From contig OY970166.1 of assembly GCA_963706595.1 (NCBI GenBank), positions 352,001 to 416,000 of the forward strand: DNA of 64,000 nucleotides, read 5' to 3'. The notes beneath the pieces were generated by a model. It made no database searches. It saw nothing but the letters and a program-made list of their open reading frames with translations, and was not told the DNA's origin. Position numbers and translations under genes: made by a program. Positions 1 to 60,515 of this stretch are shown here, piece after piece. Each line of letters opens with the position of its first letter. Positions within the stretch are counted from its first letter, which is position 1. Origin of the DNA: an uncultured cyanobacterium. Lineage in GTDB: Bacteria; Cyanobacteriota; Cyanobacteriia; Cyanobacteriales; Nostocaceae.

Positions 1-629
1 TCTAAGTGAATCCACGATAACCACTGCCGACCACTACCAAGGGGTCCACCTGCAAAAAGTTTGAAAGGTGTAATCATTTTGCCCAAAGCGCCACCATTTC
101 CCAGGACAATACCCAAACGCAGAATCACCAGACGCACACCAGCATCTTTGACTTTTTGGGCTTCTGCTTCCCAGGCTTGACAGACTTGAGCTAGAAAATC
201 GTTTCCAGATGAACTTGTTTCATCAAAGGTAGCTGTTTCACTGGTTCCATAATAACCAACAGCTGAAGCATTGACTAACACAGAAGGCTTAGGATCAGCT
301 TTGGCTATTGCTTCGACTATTTTCTGTGTACCTAACTGGCGGCTATTGAGGATTTTCTGCTTTTGTTCTGGTGTCCAGCGTTCTTCGGCGATGGGTTCTC
401 CGGCGAGATTAACGACACCATCACAACCAGCGATCGCATCTTGCCAAGAACCAGATATTGTGGGTGTATAGTCCTGAATTTCTACATTAGGAAAAGCCCC
501 GGCTGGAAAAACTTTTTGAGCAGAGGAAGTGTTACGAGTTAACACTAATATTCTATGACCATCTTTGTGCAGTCTTTGCACCAGACGACTGCCGACAAAT
601 CCTGTGGCCCCAGTAATGGCTACTTTCAT
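1..629 (-). CDS. TIGR01777-family NAD-dependent epimerase/oxidoreductase (3' end runs off window)
   Basis: Manual translation from ATG at 629: [17 protein letters not shown] (Rossmann motif), later [18 protein letters not shown] and LRLGIVLG segments. Confidence 0.85.
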
Positions 630-7067: not shown

Positions 7068-8651
7068 GGGACTTCCAAGGAATAAAATCCCCAACTACTA
7101 ATAATGATAATCATTGTAGAGGGGAGAAGTCAGGGCTACCGTTCGGTAGCCCTGACTTCCCTTTTTGTAGTAAATTCAATGATGTTAGGTACAATTTTTC
7201 GAGGAGCTAAGAGTGTCAATTGAATTAACTGATTCGCTCTCAAGTTTGCTTAAAGAAACAGCAACTCAATTGAAAAGTGCAGCCAGACGGCGTTTCCAAG
7301 CGCAAACTGTGATGTCTTTAGGCTACGGAGGACAACTACTAGCTCAAAAAGAATTAGGATGGGATAGAAAAACTATTCGCAAAGGTATTAAAGAATTAAC
7401 TAGTGGGATGACCTGTATCGATAATTATTCGGCGAAAGGGCGTTACAAAGCAGAAGAACATTTACCAAACCTTTTAGAGGATATCAAAAAATTAGTTGAT
7501 TCCCAAAGCCAAACTGACCCAAGTTTTAAAAGCCAAAGACTATATACACGCCTCACAGCAAGTCAAGTAAGAAAGCTGTTGATAGAGAAATTTAGTTATA
7601 GTGATGAAGAATTACCCACATCAGAAACAATTCGCATCAAATTGAATTATTTAGGTTATCGACTTAAACGGGTAGCAAAAGTACTTCCTCAAAAAAAATC
7701 CCCGAAACGGATGCAATTTTTGAGCAATTAGCAATAGTTAATCAATCGGCTTTGAATGACAAGAGCATTTTACGTTTAAGTCTTGATGCCAAAGCTCGTG
7801 TCAATATTGGCGCTTTTGACCGAGGTGGTAAAAACAGGACTCCAACTGAAACTGAAGACCATGATTATCATCCGAAAACAACTGTGACTCCTTATGGGAT
7901 ATTCCTTCCAGAACTAGATGAGCTATTTTTATATTTTACCGAATCCAAAGTAACGAGTGATTTTATTGTTGATGTATTAGTAGACTTTTGGAAAACACAG
8001 AGTAAGCGATTTCCTCTAATTAAAACACTTATTCTTAATCAAGATAACGGTGGAGAGAACAGTTCTCGACGTACCCAGTTCATGAAACGTATAATTGAGT
8101 TTGCTCAGGAATATCAGTTAAACATACGTTTAGCTTATTATCCACCCTATCATAGTAAGTACAATCCAATTGAAAGAACTTGGGCAGTCCTAGAGAACTA
8201 TTGGAATGGTAGTATTTTGGATGAAGTAGAAACGGCGTTAAATTTTGCTCAAAATATGACATGGAAAGGTAAGCATCCTCTTGTTAAATTAGTAACTCGA
8301 ACTTACGAAAACGGAGTTAAGCTTACTAAACAAGCTATGTCAGAAATTGAGAAACAAATCGAGCGACTCACCAATTCTAACTCTGAACACTTCCCGAATT
8401 TAGGTAAGTGGTTTATTGATATCTGTTGCGCGCCAACTTAATGTTGGTCAAGGAATAGTTAAATTATTACTTTGATAAATTGATTTTCACTGCACCCTAC
8501 AGCCCTTAGAGTGTAGATATTTTTCATGCTGATTTTTTCAGAGAAAGTGCTTGCCGACGGCAAGCACTTTCTCTTCCCCTAGCAATGATTATCATTCTCC
8601 AAAAAACATTTTCTCTTAAGTTTTTTGGGTAATTTATTATTTGGAAGTCCC
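7068..8651 (+). mobile_element. ISAzo13-family insertion sequence
   Basis: Terminal IRs GGGACTTCCAA (7068) / TTGGAAGTCCC (8651); 3-bp TSD TTA at 7065-7067 and 8652-8654. Confidence 0.88.
7213..8441 (+). CDS. ISAzo13-family DDE transposase, two ORFs joined by a -1 shift at the A8 run (7691-7698)
   Basis: Shift restores QKKIPETDAIF; ORF2 has SLDAK, DHD, DNGGEN, YYPPYHSKYNPIER motifs. Confidence 0.85.
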
Positions 8652-10243: not shown

Positions 10244-11082
10244 CGCATCCGCACACTACCCGCCTGACAATCTCGCAACCAAGTTTTAACTGCTTGGGCA
10301 ATTACACCCTTGCTACTATCCCTGGGGGGCGATACTACTTGTTGTTGTTGAGGATAAGCACCAATTTGGGTAAACATCATTACTAAACGCCACCCAGAGT
10401 TTGTTTTTGTTAATAGAAGCCAGTGAAACTGTTGCGATTCAACGATTTTACCAGCTATATACTGCCGTTCTAAAGTAGTAAAGAAAACTTGCTCTATTCC
10501 TGTTGCTTTACTTTTCTGCTCATCGGCGTTGTATCCACCAGAGTTAATGGGTAGGGGCTGAAACTCTGGTTTTCCTGCTAGTATCACATAACTGTAAATA
10601 TCACTGCTACGACTGCGACGGCGGGCGCGTTGAGTAACACGGTTTGCATAACTTGGTAAATCTTGCAATAGCTGAGTAGTTAATAATTCTAAACTTTGTT
10701 CAGAACAAGTCGAACTTAAGCCATTTTTAACTGCTTGACTCTGAGTTAGGAAAACAGGTGTATTGGCCTCACTGTTCACGGGATATGGAAAAACCAACGC
10801 GAAACCTAACCCCCTAGCCCCCTTCCCTACCAGGGAAGGGGGAAAAGTCAAAGCCTCTCCCCTTGTAGGGGAGAGGTTTGGAGAGAGGTTTTCTAGATGC
10901 CGTGAAAAGTCAGGTGTATTGGCAAATGCTGAGTTATTGATGCTATTTGCCGCTACTAGCCACAAGCCGAAAGCGCAAAGCCATAAGCCATAATTTTTGT
11001 TTTTGACAAATCCAAAATCCAAAATCCTCAAGCCCCTAGATTTATCTGTGGAATCAATCAAAATCCAAAATCCAAAATCCAA
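10183..11082 (-). CDS. Conserved-type cyanobacterial hypothetical protein with in-frame MITE insertion; start uncertain
   Basis: LLQDLPSYANRV...QVFFTTLERQY core; the first ~25 codons derive from heptamer repeats. Confidence 0.7.
   Translation of the reverse strand: MDFGFWILIDSTDKSRGLRILDFGFVKNKNYGLWLCAFGLWLVAANSINNSAFANTPDFSRHLENLSPNLSPTRGEALTFPPSLVGKGARGLGFALVFPYPVNSEANTPVFLTQSQAVKNGLSSTCSEQSLELLTTQLLQDLPSYANRVTQRARRRSRSSDIYSYVILAGKPEFQPLPINSGGYNADEQKSKATGIEQVFFTTLERQYIAGKIVESQQFHWLLLTKTNSGWRLVMMFTQIGAYPQQQQVVSPPRDSSKGVIAQAVKTWLRDCQAGSVRMRQSQLLPPSEPPLSQLLLLP
10767..10914. mobile_element. 148-bp MITE, copy 1
   Basis: TIRs CCTCACTGTTCACGG / CCGTGAAAAGTCAGG; 8-bp TSD TGTATTGG at 10759-10766 and 10915-10922. 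Confidence 0.88.
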
Positions 11083-11099
11083 AATCTAAAATCTAAAAT
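11008..11099. repeat. AAAATC(C/T) heptamer tract with embedded CAAGCCCCTAGATTTATCTGTGG dispersed repeat
   Basis: Related composite at 19737-19824; related CAAGCCCCTG motifs at 46928-47056. Confidence 0.75.
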
Positions 11100-11119
11100 T
11101 GTGTAGTTAACTGATACTT

Positions 11120-12500
11120 TTAACCGAGACATTCTCCGACATTTGAGATATCGTGAACATCCAGTACAACATCACCAACTGAGTCAGTGAAGGTGGTATC
11201 CCACATTGCCTTGAGGAAAATCCCCACGGCTCCATTAAAATCACGCGGTATTTCATAACCACAATTAGGGCAAAAAAAGTTCTTAGAACTACCAAGTTTT
11301 CTATGAGTGTTACCGCATTTAGTGCAAGTCTTCGATGTATATTCTTCAGTTATCCTTACCAATTTGGAACCGTAGCGGTTACACAAATGCTCAAGGGTTT
11401 GAGAGAACTGATAGAATGCCCAAGTCATCATCGCACGGGAAGTCTTATTTCTTAACTTCCGCTTCTTTTTAACAACCATTTGGGAAGTTTCAAAGGTGGG
11501 AAGTACAATCACATCGTAGTTTTTAGCTAGATATGACCCGACTTGTTTATGGCACTCAGAGCGTAGATTCTTGATTCTGGTTCTGAGTCTTTCCATCCCA
11601 AGTCTTATTTTGTATCTCAGACGCTTAAACTTATTTCCAACGCTACTATCATGTCTTGATTTTAGTTTATCCAGGTGTGAGCAAAGTTTAGCTATTTTGC
11701 TGAAATCCCCATTGCCAAACTCCAAGAAATCGCTACCGTCAAAACCAGTCATAAAAGTTCTAATGCCGGGATCAAGTGCGATTACTTTATTTGTCACACT
11801 TACCGTTTGCTCCAATTCTACGGGGAAGTGAGCGAACCAACGACCTTTGTTATAGGTCAATTCTGTTGACCCATCAGTTAGAATGCAAAAGTCTTGTCCT
11901 CTAAATTCAGGTGGTGGTAGATGTTTGGTAGTTGACACCATCCACCTACCATTTTTGTAAGCAGTAGGGTCAAACTGAATGGTTAATTTCTGGTCACGAA
12001 TACTTCGGAATTTGGCAATTTTTAGTCCGGCTTGAGGATGTGGTTTTTTATCTTGACCCTTACCAATAGTCTTTGGATTCTTAGCCGTTTCTGACCATGC
12101 TTTGTACGCTTCCATTGAAGCGTTGTCTAGTATCTTAGAAACGTTTAAGTCTAAACACCATTGGGGTATTAATCCAGAACCTTTAAGCATGGTTCTAAAC
12201 CCCATCTTTCCACCTTTCTTGCCTACTTTACTAAAACCTTGATTTTCGTTCAGATAGGCGATTGAGATGTTATAAACTTTACGAACAGCAGCAACCCATT
12301 TCTTCCAAATAATCTCAAGTTCCTTTACTGGGTATACTCGGTAGCTCACTGTCTTCAGCAACTTGTTTTTTGTACTTTCTAAGCCCGTACAATCGACAAC
12401 TGAAGACATGGATAATGGCAAGGATATCTTCGACCATTTCCCGTTCTGGGCTGAGGTTCGTTTGGTTGAGAACCAATATCTCAGTCTGCTGCCTAGCACA
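11120..12500 (-). CDS. tnpB: TnpB RNA-guided nuclease, Fanzor2/pro-Fanzor-like; start uncertain (frame continues upstream)
   Basis: RuvC-I ALDPG, VIVLPTFET, TEEYTSKTCTKC...CPNC zinc finger, RuvC-III RDFNGA. Confidence 0.88.
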
Positions 12501-13000
12501 ATCCATGAGATAAGATCGAACCCAAAGCGACAAAGCCGATCTTTGTGGGCAATGACAACAAGTTTGCAAGTGTTTGTGAGAACTCTGTCCAGTAAGGTTT
12601 GAAGACCTTTTCGTTTGAAATTGAGTCCGCTTCCGATGTCGGTGATGATTTCTGCGTCGGGGTAACGAGCAGCAAGAAACTCAATTTGTTGAGAGAGGTC
12701 GTTTTTCTGACCGCGACTTGAAACCCTGGCATATAAAAGGGTAGCTCGTTCATCTGCGGGATTACCGCGTCGAACAGGGATAACTGAATCGAGGTTATAT
12801 CTTCTTTGCCCCCCCTGAGTGAAGATACCTTCAATTTTCCCGTCTTCAAGCCACCTTTCGAGCGTTTTGGTGCTGACTCCCAGTCTGGTAGCAGCGACTC
12901 TTGGAGGTACATAGTTTATTGGCATGGACTAAGTTTGTTACTTGTCCTACTATACCACAAAATGTCTGGGTATGTCTGACTATGTTAGGGTAAATTAAGT
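11124..13000 (-). mobile_element. IS607-family element (serine recombinase TnpA plus TnpB)
   Basis: GG dinucleotides (minus strand) at 13001-13002 and 11124-11125; GACAT/ATGTC short repeats near both ends; no TSD. Confidence 0.82.
12315..12925 (-). pseudogene. tnpA: IS607 TnpA serine recombinase, frameshifted at ~12500
   Basis: N-terminal HTH, YARVSS catalytic motif, DIGSGLN, DRLCRFGF; C-terminus ILVLNQ...EMVEDILAIIHVFSCRLYGLRKY lies in another frame. Confidence 0.88.
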
Positions 13001-13734
13001 CCTATTTTTAACTCCTCAATAATCTTATTCCAGGCTAACTCAGGTTCAGCCGCCGCAGTGATGGGACGACCAATTACGAGGTAGTCTGCACCGGCTTTGA
13101 TAGCTTGGGCGGGGGTAAGCGATCGCCTTTGATCTCCCTTATCTGCCCATGAGGGGCGCACACCTGGACAAACGAGCAAAAAGTCATCTCCACAAGTTTG
13201 GCGTAACTGTGCAACCTCCTGGGGTGAGCAAACAGCCCCATTCAACCCGCATTCCTGCGCCATCAGGGCCATTTCTAAAGCATATTCTGGTAATTCCAGA
13301 GGAACTTTCAAATCAAAAGCCAGTTGTCTCGAAGAAATACTCGTCAGCAGGGTAATGGCAATTAATTGCGGTGGTTTAACGCCCGCTTGGGTTGCCCCTA
13401 CCTGTACCGCTTCAGTTGCCGCTTTCAGGGCATCTTTGCCAGCCGTGGCGTGAATCGTGAGTAAATCCACCCCGTAACTAGCAGCACTACGACAAGCCCC
13501 CGCTACAGTATTGGGAATATCGTGAAACTTTAAGTCTAAAAATATCCGTTTTTGCCGGGATTTTAAAACTTCCAGGATTGTGGGACCAGAACTAGTAAAT
13601 AATTCTAAACCCACTTTCCAGAAACTTACTTGCGGCAATTGATCTACAAGCGCGATCGCACTTTGTAGATCCGGTACATCTAAAGGCACAATTATTTGGT
13701 CATTAGCCCTTCGGCTACGCTCAGGGTAAATCAT
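12985..13734 (-). CDS. pyrF: Orotidine-5'-phosphate decarboxylase
   Basis: [12 protein letters not shown] signature; VIGRPI. Confidence 0.97.
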
Positions 13735-14947: not shown

Positions 14948-15120
14948 ACTCAGAGATTCGCTATTAACTACGCTTTTTACTTTATAAGTTGGGTTGGTTA
15001 TATTCACTGGCAATTTGTCCGTACTCTAATCTACCGAATTAATATAATTGCCAAAAACTAACCGCCTGACTTCATTGAATTAATTACAGTTATATTTACC
15101 AGTGAGGAAGTAAGAACGCC

Positions 15121-17042
15121 GTGTCGTCTTCTAGGACTTTTACAAATAAGCAGCCACAACGTCAGGCTTCATCGGGTTTTGAGTTTTTGAAAGGAGTAGG
15201 CCAAGTAACGGGCGGTACTCTGCTATCAATCACAATGCTGACAAGCTCTATTGTAGCCGGAGGGCTGGTTGGTCTGGCTATTAGTTTCCGTAATTTACCA
15301 GATGTCAGACAGCTACGTAACTTTTTGCCATCAGAAACAACTTACATTTATGACATTAATGGCAAACTGTTAACAAGTCTTCACGGTGAAGCCAACCGAG
15401 AAGTCATACCCCTAGATAGAATTTCCCCAAATCTGAAACGGGCAGTATTAGCCAGCGAAGATAGTCATTTTTACGACCATCACGGCATCAATCCCAGTGG
15501 TGTCGGACGGGCTTTAATCGTTAACTTGGTAGCAGGTAGGGTGCGAGAGGGCGGCTCTACCATCACCATGCAGTTGGTGAAAAATTTGTTTTTATCTCAA
15601 AAACGTGCCTTTACTCGGAAGTTAGCGGAAGGAGTACTGGCAATTCGATTAGAGCAAATTCTCAGCAAAGACCAAATTTTAGAAATGTACCTCAATCAAG
15701 TTTATTGGGGTCATAATAATTATGGTGTACAAACGGCAGCACGCAGCTATTTTGACAAATCAGCAGAAATATTAACCTTGGCTGAGTCAGCAATGATGGC
15801 GGGTTTAATCCAAGCGCCAGAAGAATTCAGTCCCTTTGCGAGTATGGAATTGGCAAGACGCAAACAAAGGGAAGTTTTGGGGCGGATGCTGGAATTGAAG
15901 TGGATCAGCCAGCAAGAACATGATGATGCTCTCAAACAAGAGATCAAATTTGGTCGCATCAGGTCATTCCAAGGTAGTGCCTTACCTTATGTCACTAATA
16001 CTGTGTCTCAAGAATTAGTCCAAAAATTTGGGCGTGAGGCGTTGATTAAAGGTGGAATGCGTGTGCAAACCACTGTTGATGCGGAATTCCAAACGATGGC
16101 GGAAAAAACTGTCACTAAGTGGCAGTAACAACTTGAGCCGTCAAGGGTTGCGTGATAATCAAATTGCTCTGGTAGCCATTGACCCCCGCACACATTTTAT
16201 CAAAGCACTGGTAGGCGGTGTAGACTCTAAAACTAGCGAATTCAACCGTGCCACCCAAGCCCAGCGTCAACCCGGTTCTGCTTTTAAACCCTTAGTATAT
16301 TATGCTGCTTTTGCTACTGGTAAATATACACCAGACAGCACAGTACAAGATTCGCCAGTCAGTTATCGAGATGGTAGCGGTTGGTACAGTCCGAGAAACT
16401 ACGACGGTGGCTTTCAAGGAGCAATATCAATACGGTCAGCCTTAGCCCAGTCTCGCAATATCCCGGTGATTAGGTTGGGTAGAGCTATAGGCATGAATAA
16501 AGTCGTAGAAACCTCCCGTACCTTGGGAATCATGAGTCCGATGGCACCTGTAACTTCCTTACCACTGGGAGCTATAGGCATTACACCCCTGGAACTAGCT
16601 AGTGCTTACGCTACCTTTGCTAATTATGGCTGGCAATCACCAGCCACAGTGATTGCTCGTGTTACCGATAGTAGTGGTAATGTCTTGCTAGATAATACAC
16701 CCAAACCCCAGTTAGTTCTAGATCAATGGGCATCAGCAGCAACTATCGATGTGATGCGTTCCGTAGTCACTTCGGGGACTGGTAAAGGTGCAGATATTGG
16801 TCGTCCCAGAGCGGGTAAGACAGGCACAACTTCATCGGAAAAAGATATTTGGTATGTCGGTACTGTGCCACAGTTGACAACTGCTGTCTGGATAGGTAGA
16901 GACGACAACAGACCATTATCTAGAGGTGCAACAGGTGGCGGTATGGTAGCTCCCATCTGGAAAGATTTTATGCAGCAAGCTCTCAAAGGTGTACCTTCAG
17001 AGAACTTTAAACCACCTTCTGGGTTTGCGCCCCAAACCCTAA
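15121..17042 (+). pseudogene. Class A penicillin-binding protein (PBP1A family) with two apparent frameshifts, possibly assembly errors
   Basis: Transglycosylase EDSHF/GGSTITMQL/RKLAE; transpeptidase SAFK, SRN, KTG in the next frame; shifts near 16125 and 17030. Confidence 0.85.
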
Positions 17043-17103
17043 ATAAGAAGGGATTTTGGATTAACTGCCCATCCAAAATCCCTCACATAAAATTCATAAT
17101 TCA

Positions 17104-17427
17104 CTATTGCTGTTTTTCTAGTTCGGTTTTCATCCGCTGTAGGGTAAGATTCATTTGCTCAAACATCTGTTGCGGAGTCACACCGAATTGACCTAATTGT
17201 GTCTTGAGTTGCTGCACAGTCATCTGCGCCATAAAATCTTCTGACAGCTCGAATCGCTTCATAAAGACGCGATAGCGATCCATCATAGTTTCCATTTGCT
17301 CAATAAACAGCTTTTTGCCCTCGCGATCAAACTTGCCGTAGTTATTGCCAAGATTGATTAGGGCTTGATAATCTTCAAACAGCTGTTTTGCTTCTTGCTG
17401 AACTATATCAGAGTCAAAGAATCCCAT
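17104..17427 (-). CDS. DUF1825-family cyanobacterial protein
   Basis: MGFFDSDIVQQEAKQLF...FDREGK...KRFELS pattern. Confidence 0.8.
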   Translation of the reverse strand: MGFFDSDIVQQEAKQLFEDYQALINLGNNYGKFDREGKKLFIEQMETMMDRYRVFMKRFELSEDFMAQMTVQQLKTQLGQFGVTPQQMFEQMNLTLQRMKTELEKQQ

Positions 17428-48081: not shown

Positions 48082-48921
48082 CTAAAATCCAAAAGCTAAA
48101 GTATCCAACATATATTTACTTTTTTCCCGTCCAACCTCTAGATAAATCTCTAGCAGTTCTTCATAAGCAGTAGTTCCTCCTACAACACTCCAAAAGTCAT
48201 TTCCGATAACTACAGCTTCATCAAAAGGTAAATAACTTTTTGCTTGCGTCCATTTATAATCAGATTTATTTACACCATAAGGATTATACGGCATTGCATA
48301 GTAAGCTTGTACTTGAGGACGGTTGACTCCGCGCAGTAGATGAAATCTCAATAAACGTTGGAGAACTTCTAAACATTGTCCTTTGTTGGGTTTAGGAGCT
48401 TTAATTTCAAAGAAAAATTCTGTCCCATCTTTTGCAAGAATATAAAGGTCTACGCGAACAATCTTTGTTTCTAAATCATCACTGCGACGAGCATTAAGCA
48501 CTGCTGTAATCATCTGCTCAAAAGATGGTTTTCCTTGCTCCCTTTTTGCAGCAGATTCATAATTTTGTTTTTGCAGTTCAGCTTCTGCAAAAGCTGCAAT
48601 ACTTACTTCAGTTTTAATATCATAACCTCGACGTACATCTTGATGATGTTCGAGAGCGATTAAGCGAGCGCATTCTTCAAAAGAATTACCTAACTTTGTA
48701 CTCAGCCCTCTTTCAAATTGATTTATCCGGATTAATTCTGGGGGAATAAGTGCAGCTTGAAATGGCTTTAATTCTCCATTAGATGAGTGTCTTGATAAAT
48801 ACTCTGTTGCTGTGGTAGGTTTTAAAATATTACGTCCTTTATATTCATCTATAAGACCTTGAATAAAACCCTCTAAATAACCTTTAATTGCTGCACGAGT
48901 ATTTGCACTAATAGCTACCAT
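48082..48921 (-). CDS. Type II restriction endonuclease, TdeIII-like
   Basis: FERGLSTKLGNSFE, VDLY...FEIKAPKPN PD-(D/E)xK, YAMPYNPYG, FW; adjacent C5 methylase. Confidence 0.8.
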   Translation of the reverse strand: MVAISANTRAAIKGYLEGFIQGLIDEYKGRNILKPTTATEYLSRHSSNGELKPFQAALIPPELIRINQFERGLSTKLGNSFEECARLIALEHHQDVRRGYDIKTEVSIAAFAEAELQKQNYESAAKREQGKPSFEQMITAVLNARRSDDLETKIVRVDLYILAKDGTEFFFEIKAPKPNKGQCLEVLQRLLRFHLLRGVNRPQVQAYYAMPYNPYGVNKSDYKWTQAKSYLPFDEAVVIGNDFWSVVGGTTAYEELLEIYLEVGREKSKYMLDTLAFGF

Positions 48922-48935
48922 ATTTAAAATTAAAC

Positions 48936-50322
48936 CTATAAAATGATTTTTAACAAAGCATTTGCTAAATGATAGACTACAGGAACTGAAACAGCATTCC
49001 CAAACTGATGCTTGGCTGTAGTTTCATTCTCTGCAATTTGGAAACTTTCTGGAAATCCTTGCAATCTGGCGTAATCTTGTGCAGTTAAAGGTTTATATTT
49101 ATTCTGGTTATAAATTTGTTGAATAAATTTTTGCTTATACACTTCTGGTTGTTCACATTCTATAGATATAGTAGCTACATAATCTCTGGTTCCAGTTGCG
49201 GTTAAAGTTGCAATTGCATCAGCATGAGGTAGAAATATTTTAGAAATCCCGTTAATTCCTGAAGAAATTTTAGAATTTACAAATTCATAACCTTTCTCTT
49301 CTACAAGGCGCAGAATTTTTTTGTCCACTAAAGTATTGATTTCTTCTATCTCTAAACTAGGAATCAAAGATTTTAAAATTTCAAATCTTAAAGGATTACC
49401 ATCTTTTTCCCCATAAATTTTCTTTCTCCTATTTTTTAAGATAGTTTGGCAAATTAGCTTTTCTCTAGGATTGGTTTCTATTAATTCCCAAGAATGGATT
49501 GTAGTATGTCCATCTCTAATATCAGCAAAAGTAAAAAAATCGTTTAATTCGTCTATTTTTTGAAATCTTCCTCTAGAAGCAGGAATTTTACCATCAGTAA
49601 ATAAGATTTCTGGAGAAAATTTCTTTTTAGGTAAATTACTCTGTTGAATTCCAGGAATGAGAATCATAAAGCTTGAGACGTTGATTTAATGCTTTAGGAA
49701 ACGTAAACCCCCAACAATTCGCAATGTCATTTCTAATTCCCACAATAAATACTCTGTCTCTATCTTGAGGTAAACCAAAATCGTAGGAGTTTAGTACCTG
49801 ATATTTAACTACATAGTCAGATGATGTTAAGTTATTAAGTATGTATTCTAAACTTACTCTATTTCTTGGCTCAGTTAAACCTTTGACATTCTCAAATATA
49901 AATGCTTTGGGTTTATTTAGTTGTACAATTCTAAAAACATCAAGCCATAGTTGACCTCTGGGGTCTTGTAAACCTTGCATTTTACCCGCTATAGACCAAG
50001 GTTGACAAGGAACACCACCGACTATCATATCTATTTCAAAAGGCAGTTGATGTAAATTAGTAATATCTCCTAAATAGGCTTCTTCGGCATTGATACCACG
50101 AATAAAGTTTTTTTGATAAACTTTAATAGCTTCTTTATTAATTTCTGAATATCCTAAACAATTTCCGCCTAATTCTTCCAGGGGAATTCTAAAACCACCT
50201 ATACCAGAGAATAGGTCTACAAATGTAAATTTTGTTGTGCATTTGACGGTGTTGGTAGGTTGGAATAATTGAAATAATTCTAGTTGTTGTCCATAAATAC
50301 CTGTTTGCATTGGCGTGGTCAA
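48936..50322 (-). pseudogene. DNA (cytosine-5) methyltransferase split by a +1 frameshift near 49662
   Basis: DLFSGIGG, PCQ, ENV, QDRDR in ORF1; ARLQGF, FGNAV in ORF2. Confidence 0.88.
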
Positions 50323-50518
50323 ATAGAAAATTTAACAAATATATTCTAATTTTAGTATAAACCCTGTTAGCACATTCCCATCGGACATTGCCAAAGCGAT
50401 CGCCTCTGGTATGCTTGGCTAATGCACTCTTTGCAAATTTGCCAAAAGCGTAGATACTCACAGGATGATAGTCTGTGTATATTTAAATTAGGGTAACAGC
50501 AATATAAACAGAAAATGT

Positions 50519-51680: not shown

Positions 51681-52016
51681 TTAACTCACAGCATATTCTG
51701 TAAACTGCCTCATAAAAGGAGACTGAAAACCTAACACAATATCCTCCTTGGAAACTCCAGCAGCTACCAAATTAGCAGCAATATCATCCTCTGTACCATT
51801 CCATTGCAGCCAAATTTTTCCACCTTTAATATCAATATGAATGATACAACTATGTACCCAATCTTGACCTTCCCAACCGACATGAACTATTTGATAATGA
51901 TCACGTTCTGTATCAAAAATTGTCTCAACTTCTATATTGCCGTAAGCTGGTTTTTGCTCACTATATTCCTGTAATATTTGTTGTACAAGCTGGCGATACC
52001 TAGTTAATTTATCCAT
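51681..52016 (-). CDS. xisI: XisI family protein
   Basis: FDTERDHYQ..VGW, IHIDIKGGKIWLQ, GVSKEDIVLGF. Confidence 0.92.
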   Translation of the reverse strand: MDKLTRYRQLVQQILQEYSEQKPAYGNIEVETIFDTERDHYQIVHVGWEGQDWVHSCIIHIDIKGGKIWLQWNGTEDDIAANLVAAGVSKEDIVLGFQSPFMRQFTEYAVS

Positions 52017-52423
52017 TTAAAAATCACCTCTTTCTCTACATCGTAAACAAGCATTTTTAACCGATTCTCTGATATCATATCTTTGGGAAAATCAAGTTGA
52101 AAAAATGTTTTGTAAGTTGTTAAAGGGACTGCTAAATATAAAACACGCTCCGGTTGTAATCTTCTCAATGCACCTCGATAATTAATAAATTGTCCTAATG
52201 CTGTATGAAATTCCGAAATAGCAGACGATTTTTCTAAAAAACTTTTGACTTCGACTGCAATTTTTTGTCCTTCCCGTTCTGCGGCTATCAGCTTTTCTGC
52301 GGCCAAATCAATAGAAAGATTAACTCCTCCTACACTAATTGTAAGTGGGTCATTAGTAACTTGCCAACCATCTTTTTGTAAAGCTATTTTGACAACTCCA
52401 TGAAAAATATCTTTAGCTGACAT
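52004..52423 (-). CDS. xisH: XisH family protein
   Basis: MSAKDIFH..VKIALQKDGW, KIAVEVKSF, FHTALGQFINYR, LYLAVP. Confidence 0.92.
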   Translation of the reverse strand: MSAKDIFHGVVKIALQKDGWQVTNDPLTISVGGVNLSIDLAAEKLIAAEREGQKIAVEVKSFLEKSSAISEFHTALGQFINYRGALRRLQPERVLYLAVPLTTYKTFFQLDFPKDMISENRLKMLVYDVEKEVIFKWIN

Positions 52424-52565
52424 ACATATCTATAATTATATTGCTTATTCTATAATTACAGTACCAGGAAGCGATACCTTCGGTCAGCTTCCCTATCACA
52501 TTCCCCACATCCCCAAAACAGCGATCGCACATCTTTACATTCCCAATATCTAATACAACTTCATA

Positions 52566-60151: not shown

Positions 60152-60224
60152 CTGAATAATCTATAACTTGTGGCATAATCATAATGTAAATTTTAGGAAT
60201 AGAAATTTAAAATTTAGTATAATA

Positions 60225-60515
60225 ATGAATAAGTTGGAATTTACTTGGGATTCACAAAAAGCCGAGAGTAATATTCAAAAACATGGAATTTCTTTTGAAG
60301 AAGCAAAATCTGCCTTTGTTGATGATAATGCTCGTTTAATTTATGATCCCGATCATTCTCAAGGTGAAGATAGATTTATTTTATTAGGAATCAGTGTTTA
60401 TTATCGCCTTTTAGTTGTTTGTCATTGTTATCGAGAAAATGATACAATAATTCGGATTATTTCAGCTAGAAAAGCAAATAAACTAGAACAAAAACAATAT
60501 CAGGAGTTCCTATGA
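60225..60515 (+). CDS. BrnT-family toxin
   Basis: FTWDSQKAESNIQKHGISFEEA, EDRFILLG, IRIISARKA. Confidence 0.9.
   Translation: MNKLEFTWDSQKAESNIQKHGISFEEAKSAFVDDNARLIYDPDHSQGEDRFILLGISVYYRLLVVCHCYRENDTIIRIISARKANKLEQKQYQEFL

Follow-up and report, generated by a model that had tools for sequence, protein, structure and literature searches.

A 64,000 nucleotide (nt) stretch of the genome of an uncultured cyanobacterium (contig OY970166.1, positions 352,001 to 416,000, here called the window) carries an uninterrupted open reading frame of 601 amino acids (aa) at positions 11120..12925 of the minus strand. The N-terminal part is that of TnpA, the serine recombinase of IS607-family insertion sequences, and the remainder is that of TnpB, the RNA-guided nuclease encoded next to it. 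The question raised by this locus is whether the open reading frame represents a natural fusion of a recombinase with a nuclease, or whether the arrangement of the two genes is such that a fusion appears by accident. The analysis points, with good though not full confidence, to the second answer: an IS607 element with a nuclease of the pro-Fanzor type, whose tnpB frame starts inside tnpA in the +1 frame, and a chimera that arises from one missing base.

Pfam searches of the 601 aa sequence show a MerR/HTH_17 helix-turn-helix (HTH) match at residues 11–48 and a Resolvase match at residues 64–142, the latter covering only profile positions 3–86 of 145. The TnpB part displays HTH_OrfB_IS605 (190–227), OrfB_IS605 (366–483) and Cas12f1-like_TNB (504–569). 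The putative chain consists of TnpA residues 1–142, followed by 50 residues of an overprinted frame and then by the TnpB core. Two smaller open reading frames are found on the same strand, one of 139 aa (12493..12912) that overlaps the 5′ part of tnpA in the +1 frame, and one of 84 aa (12315..12569) that represents the remainder of TnpA in another frame. When an undefined base (N) is inserted between 12501 and 12500, both frames read through, giving a TnpA of 203 aa that aligns over its full length with homologues of 200–207 aa, and a second frame of 597 aa that begins with the ATG at 12912, 13 nt after the tnpA ATG. A preliminary description of the window, made from the sequence alone, had reported the fused open reading frame, the overlapping frame 12912-12493 and the effect of one added base, all of which are borne out.

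The nuclease frame within tnpA

One explanation offered in the preliminary description is dual coding, in which TnpB would have a long N-terminal extension; whether the second frame stays open in homologous IS607 elements was proposed there as a check. Two sets of loci were assembled. The bacterial set consists of 86 loci, 80 of them from species-representative genomes via TnpA peptides, to which four homologues (L021–L024) and two further loci (L004 and L005) were added. Both genes are whole in 57 of these; 22 have a whole tnpA with a partial or absent tnpB, three a whole tnpB with a broken tnpA, and four are partial for both. The viral set consists of 79 loci from viral contigs, obtained via C-terminal TnpB motifs, 43 of them with both genes whole. 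Loci were picked by these peptides and motifs and not by overlap.

All 57 whole bacterial pairs have the tnpB frame at +1 relative to tnpA, open over 89–100% of tnpA. The same +1 frame is found in each of the 43 whole viral pairs, which include contigs labelled as giant-virus genomes, and is open there over 61–100% of tnpA (median 93%). The frame thus stays open in every whole locus of both sets. In three homologues with an intact TnpA of 200–207 aa (L021, L022 and L024) the tnpB frame extends from stop to stop over 598, 606 and 610 codons and spans all of tnpA.

The bacterial loci form two clades, a close clade and a sister clade, with only 46% TnpA identity between them. In the close clade the frame is open from 10 nt or less of the tnpA start in 25 of the 27 loci where the canonical TnpB N-terminus can be located, and five of these 25 are open despite a tnpB that is broken further down. 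The two exceptions are L064, with a deleted tnpA, and L068, with a degraded tnpB. The genome that contains the window also carries two intact elements of the sister clade, L005 (G000:C1:1018483-1021566) and L004 (G000:C1:4646873-4649956), each with a 200 aa TnpA frame and a long nuclease frame of 527 aa at +1. A further copy is found on plasmid alpha of Nostoc PCC 7120 (148493-150187) and is identical in Trichormus variabilis plasmid A (L132/L133 for the two plasmids). Here tnpA has a stop at the tyrosine of the YARVSS motif, yet the long frame is open for 553 aa; this plasmid element may have kept the nuclease without its transposase.

Other IS607 elements do not display this arrangement. Twelve such elements from plasmids were taken as controls, of which nine have an annotated adjacent tnpB (L120, L124 and L130 were left out). 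In all nine the tnpB frame overlaps tnpA by only 10–65 nt, and the +1 frame of tnpA contains 5–30 stops. The control element of similar G+C content (0.44) has 14.

An open frame of this length could also be a side effect of the amino acid and codon make-up of TnpA, or of a constraint on the nucleotide sequence such as RNA structure, with no second protein made. When synonymous codons are shuffled within each intact tnpA, so that both protein and codon make-up are kept, 4–7 stops are expected in the +1 frame, and the probability of finding none is 0.0004 to 0.005 per gene. In the +2 frame these tnpA genes contain 12–14 stops, and the closed +1 frame of the nine control genes belongs to proteins of the same fold; all three observations argue against a side effect. 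For codons 100–200 taken separately the probability of no stop is about 0.03 per gene, and the frame is open in 49 of 49 genes.

If tnpA does encode part of the nuclease, the two genes are unable to evolve independently, and an unusual nucleotide conservation of tnpA would be explained. Divergence at fourfold-degenerate sites was compared between tnpA and the tnpB-only region of the same elements, leaving out the last 120 tnpB alignment columns. In the close clade the values are 0.286 for tnpA and 0.554 for tnpB-only, with tnpA lower in 190 of 190 pairs. The sister clade gives 0.352 and 0.604, with tnpA lower in 99.8% of 406 pairs, and comparisons between the clades give 0.565 and 0.713. Within clades, tnpA diverges at these sites about half as fast as the tnpB-only region. 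The dip is deepest at the second-frame motifs KPYW and SWFST and at the tail before the canonical TnpB start. The first 20 columns of the sister clade, which lie before the second-frame ATG, are like the tnpB-only region (0.47 versus about 0.51).

Identity of the second frame between the clades is 0.279, compared with 0.214 in a shuffle null. This measure reflects constrained third positions and does not indicate which frame constrains them. The +2 frame was tried as a control for the selected frame and dropped, since both frames share the third positions of tnpA.

The extension as a probable protein domain and its proposed translation start

Across 48 second-frame sequences five residues never change, namely W108, L121, P122, W147 and F148. 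W108 and W147 lie over TnpA Leu and Val codons, the third positions of which are free. A profile of the long proteins shows the mimivirus Fanzor2 (structure 9b0l) as the best solved relative with an E-value = 1.2e-43; the E-value for ISDra2 TnpB (8h1j) is 1.5e-11. The alignment with 9b0l starts in the overprinted part, where profile position 118 (ksWFst) corresponds to Fanzor2 residue 79 (NSWYEH), and the second part of the overprinted domain in the window (12347..12499) is aligned from this residue onward. ISDra2 TnpB aligns only from profile positions 157–158, i.e. the canonical start.

An AlphaFold2 (AF2) model of residues 96–597 of the homologue L040, built with 148 sequences, has a predicted local distance difference test score (pLDDT) of 81.9 and a predicted template modelling score of 0.78. 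The TnpB core shows pLDDT values of 80–97 and a Z of 21.9 to ISDra2 TnpB 8h1j. The extension has two confident segments, residues 7–27 (helix) and 48–64 (strand). With this model Foldseek places 9b0l first (E-value = 2.5e-23). A second structure aligner gives 9b0l_P a Z of 25.0 with a root-mean-square deviation of 6.6 over 412 residues, with model positions 9..481 equivalent to chain positions 53..518. Every other TnpB or Cas12f structural match begins at model residue 85–91. The identity to 9b0l is about 19–20%.

The mimivirus protein, ApmFz2 (L79), has an N-terminal domain at residues 53–130 that is absent from other solved TnpBs (PMC11832414). Its RuvC-R segment (65–91) makes the RuvC fold complete and is in contact with the guide RNA, and a basic thumb (109–130) clasps the target DNA; residues 1–53 are described as a disordered nuclear localisation signal (PMC11832414). 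Residue 53, the first of this domain, is also the chain position at which the structural alignment with the model begins. Judged from the model and the alignments, the last 80 or so residues of the extension (PYW...LP...SWF and a basic tail) appear to match this N-terminal domain. The first 100 or so residues are predicted to form a disordered leader rich in Lys and Ser.

The domain is also found where no recombinase gene remains. Fifteen viral loci carry a whole nuclease with no TnpA match, and a profile of the extension alone detects nucleases of this kind in L196 (2.4e-6), L192 (3.8e-5), L173 (1.9e-4) and L166 (2e-3). Six viral nucleases without tnpA were inspected; the would-be tnpA frame is full of stops and P[YF]W..IS..LP is kept, and SW[FYT] is kept in three of them (L196, L184 and L191). 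The extension profile matches 1546 cluster representatives at E-values up to 1e-3 and 1136 at 1e-10, many of 500–650 aa. Gene calls of the Joint Genome Institute include 597 aa putative transposases that match the window.

The dual-coding explanation thus stands on four observations, i.e. a frame open throughout the family, synonymous constraint in tnpA, the apparent match to the Fanzor2 N-terminal domain, and survival of the domain without tnpA. We regard dual coding across the family as most probably real.

Several results weigh against so extensive an overlap, or against its interpretation as a domain. The profile of the extension alone, when compared with solved structures, does not recover 9b0l at E-values up to 10 and shows one chance match (E-value = 0.87); the case for the Fanzor2 correspondence is therefore made by the alignment of whole proteins, the structural range and short motifs. 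In the AF2 model, extension residues 28–47 and 65–86 are under 50 pLDDT, and a first model with 48 sequences, which the present one replaced, had about 25 over the whole extension. The excess in second-frame identity between clades is partly mirrored in the +2 frame (0.239 versus 0.190). RefSeq lists the homologues of PCC 7120 and ATCC 29413 at 391 and 402 aa. In the close clade there are in-frame ATGs at +193 and +268, and often a TTG or GTG near the canonical TnpB start. Finally, over leader codons 4–64 of the close clade the probability of no stop is about 0.29 per gene; an open frame in 20 of 20 genes is not rare by chance, the genes being related, and the open leader is suggestive only.

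Two of these points, the rise in +2-frame identity that third-position conservation brings with it and the missing structural match of the extension-only profile, are what an open frame with no protein product would lead one to expect. That explanation does not account for motifs that persist where tnpA is gone, or for a structural range that fits the Fanzor2 N-terminal domain. With the stop counts given above, we find it scarcely credible.

The conserved ATG codons bear on where translation of the nuclease starts. Of 20 close-clade genes, 17 have an ATG at +13 from the tnpA ATG; in the remaining three it is at +10 or +4. The +13 ATG is formed by the TnpA residues Tyr-Val (TAT GTN). Sister-clade genes keep the frame closed until about +60; 28 of the 29 then have an ATG between +67 and +76, preceded by a purine-rich stretch that contains AAGGA or GAGG in 17 of these 28. 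In many sister-clade genes the final ~150 nt of tnpA offer the tnpB frame none of the start codons ATG, GTG and TTG. One locus, L117, where the first ATG is at +265, was left out of alignments A1 and A2. From these sequence patterns, independent initiation near the 5′ end of tnpA is the favoured start.

A more limited overlap has also to be considered, in which only the last 80–130 codons are translated, from an internal start such as the +193 or +268 ATG that recur in the close clade, and the upstream frame is unused, having stayed open by chance and because the genes are related. In its favour, conservation of the leader is poor and disorder is predicted for it, synonymous constraint is weaker in the first 80 columns, the viral relatives open the frame at varying points of tnpA, and the leader would by chance be free of stops as often as stated above. 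However, the 20 close-clade genes are open from codon 4 at TnpA identities of 58–100%, and the start codon at +13, +10 or +4 is kept in all of them. The sister clade has 40 stops in codons 0–20 of its 29 genes and is open right after the conserved ATG, which is the pattern of a start in use. We consider the limited overlap unlikely, with a real if minor chance of being correct.

Translation from near the tnpA start thus remains the preferred reading, and a mechanism may be outlined from it. In the pro-Fanzor lineage the tnpB frame would start inside tnpA, in +1, and not after tnpA. About 590 nt would encode two proteins, the serine recombinase TnpA in frame 0 and an N-terminal extension of TnpB of about 185 residues in frame +1. 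Translation of the nuclease would begin at the +13 ATG, and two close starts on one mRNA would compete and so set the ratio of TnpA to TnpB. In the window copy the loss of one base in the overlap would have swapped the frames. A ribosome that starts at the tnpA ATG would then read the HTH and two thirds of the catalytic domain, the overprinted tail and the whole TnpB core (601 aa), and one that starts at the tnpB ATG would meet a stop after 139 codons.

A wider proposal may be added, which we offer tentatively and hold at slightly under an even chance: the N-terminal domain of Fanzor2 and pro-Fanzor nucleases would have been born de novo by overprinting on a bacterial IS607 serine recombinase gene, the whole overlap of ~200 codons would be translated from the +13 ATG with two competing starts setting the recombinase to nuclease ratio, and the basic disordered leader would later have been used by eukaryotic viruses as a nuclear localisation signal.

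Cas12 descends from TnpB and Fanzor nucleases, which are now under development as compact genome editors. If part of the nuclease is indeed encoded within tnpA, most annotations start these nucleases about 100–185 residues late, as with the RefSeq lengths of 391 and 402 aa against a frame of 553 aa. Constructs designed on such annotations would then be missing the domain with which Fanzor2 completes its RuvC fold and holds both RNA and DNA. The extra domain of eukaryotic Fanzor2 would also obtain a concrete origin in a bacterial gene overlap, and a same-strand overlap of 350–650 nt in more than a thousand protein clusters would rank among the longest in cellular mobile elements.

The missing base and the fused frame

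Comparison with other copies, a check advised in the preliminary description, was carried out with five homologues. Four are full length, come from other genera and are 77–82% identical (L021–L024), and the fifth is a fragment with 98% identity (L025). All five have an extra base that is absent from the window. At the break the window reads GAT-TGTGCT and L025 reads GATCTGTGCT. The lost base is most likely a C on the minus strand (G on the plus strand), as L025 has GATCTGTGC.

Contigs from other sequencing runs give the same result. A DNA contig of 2144 nt (X1) shows 21 differences over 11111–13014 (~99% identity), and an 806 nt contig from an RNA library (X15), not in itself a sign of transcription, covers 12409–13014, also at ~99% identity. 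The extra base is present in both, in each case as a G put in behind 12500 on the plus strand. The runs compared are Logan contigs that share at most 0.68 of words, and none represents the window's own variant at 12500; the X2 contig ends at 12487, and X3 has no cover over 12414–12570. Thus one base is missing, as had been claimed, but it is most likely the C seen in L025 and in the X1 and X15 contigs and not the T that was suggested. The encoded residues are unchanged by this correction.

L025 (G029:C72) leaves the element at the equivalent of window position 12485 and the X2 contig at 12487. Both positions are 13–15 nt past the frameshift site, and both sequences continue into unrelated sequence. 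These may be truncated copies or may carry another insertion.

Whether the base was lost by mutation or in the assembly is a matter of nearly even odds. The lost base is the C of a GATC, a motif that is methylated in Nostocales, and long-read base-callers are prone to error at such motifs. The genome is a single contig and yet only 94% complete for marker genes, compared with 98–100% in nine of ten same-genus genomes, and the window has three more genes split between frames, all of which favour an error. Against an error, two sister elements of the same genome, 97% identical, differ by 53 substitutions and show no gaps over 1739 base pairs (bp).

The split genes are as follows. A class A penicillin-binding protein gene (15106-17188, plus strand) is divided into a transglycosylase and a transpeptidase open reading frame by an insertion of one base near 16123, which none of five same-genus genomes carries. 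A C5 cytosine DNA methylase (48085-50331, minus strand) is found in two frames, covering profile positions 1–180 and 252–323, and adjoins an intact-looking restriction endonuclease of the TdeIII type. Since an active nuclease would do harm next to a defective methylase, this points to an assembly error or a dead system. The third is an ISAzo13-type DDE transposase (7189-8438, plus strand) in two overlapping frames, covering profile positions 1–71 and 59–296.

With both frames open, a net −1 change anywhere in tnpA is enough to join the N-terminal part of TnpA to TnpB, and the loss of a base swaps the frames without stopping translation. In such a locus a single indel must therefore give a striking fusion open reading frame, here of 601 aa, which is not to be read as a chimera engineered by nature without read support.

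Fusions of this kind are few. The 100 loci in which both genes are whole, 57 bacterial and 43 viral, include no fusion. A search with the first 200 residues of the 601 aa sequence gave 44 proteins of 330–1052 aa, about 11 of which carry both TnpA-type and TnpB-type Pfam domains; nine of these are single sequences and two have 5–6 members. Seven of the fusion junctions are readable, and all are at different places. Two gene models, P0171 of the streptophyte alga Klebsormidium nitens and P0190 of the chytrid Quaeritorhiza haematococci, unite resolvase with TnpB-type domains. Both may represent IS607/Fanzor2 loci in which two overlapping frames are joined by predicted introns.

The chimera lacks Resolvase profile positions 87–145, i.e. 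the C-terminal third of the recombinase catalytic domain, as well as the PYW...LP half of the nuclease N-terminal domain. The nuclease core looks intact, with DPG, the shifted Glu in TEEYTSKT, two CxxC pairs and PRD. From this sequence make-up the chimera would most likely have no transposase activity, and full nuclease activity is doubtful.

The preliminary description had also raised a natural recombinase/nuclease chimera. An unbroken open reading frame that has an HTH, a catalytic serine motif and an intact-looking nuclease core would be compatible with a real and selected product of this strain. But this genome has it in one copy only, and the base whose absence creates it is present in five of five homologues and in the two near-identical contigs. 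Fusions elsewhere are few and their junctions differ; no locus with both genes whole contains one. The missing catalytic segment and half domain and the further one-base frame breaks in conserved genes of this assembly also count against a selected chimera, which is very improbable. The chimera appears incidental, a by-product of mutation or of assembly error and not a conserved design.

A programmed frame change would give the fusion another meaning. TnpB might have no initiation of its own, and +1 slippage of the ribosome or of RNA polymerase might make TnpA-TnpB fusions in the manner of IS1 and IS3 OrfAB, a product that the deletion would then hard-wire. As the tnpB frame is open behind every tnpA position, any +1 shift would lead to a fusion, and fusion open reading frames do recur in the databases. 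However, no slippery run is conserved among the aligned homologues: neither the G7 at about 12820 nor the A6 near the end of tnpA is kept. A shift site needs an open frame only downstream of itself, whereas conserved ATGs mark the frame start in both clades. Nucleases without tnpA keep the domain, in the solved Fanzor2 this domain belongs to the protein's own N-terminus, and the database fusions are nearly all single sequences joined at different points. Slippage is therefore quite unlikely, and separate initiation of the two proteins is preferred. If the overprinting proposal is true, single-base indels in tnpA keep supplying recombinase-nuclease chimeras, which would be raw material for fused, possibly RNA-guided, recombinases.

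The element and its relation to known systems

The inserted segment extends from 13007 to 11107 (1901 bp), with its position ambiguous by the 6 nt AGTTAA that is common to both junctions. Nine same-genus genomes lack the element at this site and display an empty site, with GAGGAGTTAA joined directly to CTACACAA; compared with these relatives there is no target-site duplication beyond the shared AGTTAA. Absence from the same site in the nine genomes speaks for mobility. The genome carries one full copy and one fragment of 483 bp, and copies of 77–98% identity are found in other genera. The X1 contig matches 11111–13014 and then diverges. Insertion has replaced the last four residues of PyrF (...EELTTQF in the relative G002) by seven residues from the left end of the element (12985-13014, minus strand). 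Coordinates of the features are given in Table 1.

Table 1. Positions of the insertion sequence and its parts in the window
Feature	Positions	Strand	Remarks
IS607-family insertion sequence, pro-Fanzor (TnpB2) type	11107..13012	−	
Left-end subterminal repeats	12960..12990	−	three RACAT motifs 10 bp apart; similar motifs in homologues
Promoter-like site	12949..12978	−	CAGACA, 18 nt, TG-n-TATAGT; about 24 nt upstream of tnpA ATG; consensus match only
tnpA, 5′ part	12501..12925	−	MerR-like HTH and N-terminal part of resolvase catalytic domain; codons 1–141 and first two bases of codon 142, the third base as assembled being 12500
Catalytic-serine motif YARVSS	12733..12716	−	
Missing-base site	12500..12501	−	C in relatives, the C of a GATC; shifts tnpA frame into tnpB frame
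tnpA, 3′ part	12315..12500	−	61 codons and stop; out of frame with 5′ part in this copy
Long tnpB frame, first part	12493..12912	−	+1 to tnpA; ATG at 12912, Lys/Ser-rich leader
KPYWTE motif, long tnpB frame	12600..12583	−	
SLPTK motif, long tnpB frame	12555..12541	−	
Stop closing first part of tnpB frame	12493-12495	−	in this copy, from frame swap
Overprinted N-terminal domain, second part	12347..12499	−	in frame with tnpA 5′ part in this copy
RYWFST motif	12481..12464	−	followed by basic stretch before canonical TnpB start
Canonical TnpB core	11120..12346	−	from SYRVYP; stop TAA 11120-11122
RuvC-I ALDPG (ALDPGIRT)	11779..11756	−	
Shifted RuvC-II Glu in TEEYTSKT	11350..11327	−	
Zinc ribbon CTKCG/CPNCG	within 11120..12346	−	two CxxC pairs, TnpB core
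RuvC-III PRD	11251..11231	−	
Putative guide-RNA (omega/reRNA) scaffold	11111..11420	−	over tnpB 3′ end; nucleotide conservation among homologues
Right-end subterminal repeats	11127..11144	−	ATGTC twice, 10 bp apart; inverted relative to left end
Right-end flank CTACACAATTTTAGATTTTA	11087..11106	−	matches empty site of relatives

The tips of the element form a direct repeat (D7, 11107-11124 and 12995-13012) and are not inverted. An inverted repeat (I1) is found inside the tips, where 12960-12977 is 83% complementary to 11127-11144. By analogy with other IS607 elements (PMC6188088), the RACAT/ATGTY motifs are probably binding sites of TnpA. A promoter scan of the region gave two sites compared with 4.3 expected from shuffles. 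Tandem heptamers, (GATTTTG)n, flank the right end (11040-11100); there are dozens of matches in this genome and its relatives, and the heptamers are already present in the empty site of G002.

The tnpB stop lies 9–13 nt from the right end (at 11111 by homology, or at 11107 with the AGTTAA), and any guide-RNA scaffold must therefore lie inside the coding region. In the close clade, synonymous differences fall to 0.20–0.37 in the last ~140 tnpB alignment columns, which is consistent with a putative scaffold over the 3′ end of tnpB. Rfam searches over 10800-13200 show no omega-RNA family and three sub-threshold chance matches. RNAalifold with 14 right ends finds compensatory change in 3 of 44 pairs, too few to claim a structure. 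By analogy with the TnpB mechanism and homing model (PMC8612924), the flank beyond the right end may be the guide portion of a read-through omega RNA.

The 483 bp fragment, L002 (G000:C1:5139300-5139782), is a 99.6% identical copy of the tnpB 3′ end and right end (11111-11593) and ends at 11111. It adjoins an IF-3-like gene. L002 may be a remnant with a 5′ deletion that still contains the presumed guide-RNA scaffold.

Ordinary cyanobacterial accessory genes are present elsewhere in the window, namely a XisH/XisI pair (51684-52429, minus strand) and an open reading frame with a BrnT-type toxin domain (60156-60512, plus strand).

The element shows the characters of the IS607 family: a TnpA with MerR-like HTH and resolvase domain (the gene being broken here), a tnpB downstream on the same strand, no inverted repeats at the tips, no duplication, and a short identical core at both junctions. 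The nuclease displays the DPG signature; across 148 sequences D286 and G288 do not vary, and P287 hardly varies. The nuclease also has the C-terminally shifted RuvC-II Glu (E428, invariant in the same 148 sequences), which aligns with the NE of the ApmFz2 segment VNVNEYLTTKT and is predicted by this alignment to be catalytic; the catalytic Glu467 of ApmFz2 has been placed there (PMC11832414). By both the profile (1.2e-43 for 9b0l, 1.5e-11 for 8h1j) and the structural comparison (Z 25.0 versus 21.9) the nuclease is closer to Fanzor2 than to canonical TnpB.

According to earlier descriptions, the pro-Fanzor lineage occurs mainly in cyanobacteria and is marked by DPG and a shifted glutamate (PMC10711439; bioRxiv 10.1101/2023.08.09.552727). 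The present element is like the cyanobacterial pro-Fanzor IS607 elements (PMC10711439), including those similar to ISArma1 (PMC3627910), in its serine recombinase TnpA with TnpB, DPG and shifted Glu, and in mostly cyanobacterial hosts. The main-text passages of these two papers make no mention of a nuclease frame over tnpA or of an overprinted domain. Full-text searches of the literature, with supplements and ISfinder entries outside their scope, likewise found no statement that the Fanzor2 N-terminal domain, or a large part of tnpB, is encoded over tnpA.

ApmFz2 is the best match of the nuclease in both sequence and structure, and its N-terminal domain lies behind a disordered leader. Unlike the protein considered here, ApmFz2 is a protein of a eukaryotic virus in which the leader serves as nuclear localisation signal, and a position of the domain over tnpA is not stated in the passages of that paper that describe it (PMC11832414).

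Canonical IS607 elements (ISChh1 of Campylobacter and those of Clostridium, Bacillus, Agathobacter, Staphylococcus, Alteromonas, Ligilactobacillus, Natronorubrum and Methanocaldococcus) share the two genes, their order and strand, and often a short +1 overlap. They differ in that the overlap is only 10–65 nt and that their TnpBs, of 370–450 aa (574 aa in Natronorubrum), have no such extension.

The OrfAB of IS1 and IS3 arises from a programmed −1 frameshift, for which a short overlap contains a defined slippery site, and the fusion is the active transposase. The likeness consists of two overlapping frames in an insertion sequence and of a frame change that leads to a fusion. However, in the element described here the overlap is +1 and extends over a whole gene, there is no conserved slippery site, and the fusions look accidental.

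Small viruses and phages contain overprinted genes, in which a second protein was born inside an older gene in another frame. Like these, the nuclease has a young part for which disorder is predicted over most of its length. Unlike these, the young part is here the N-terminal domain of a downstream nuclease, it belongs to a cellular mobile element, and it is kept from bacteria to giant viruses.

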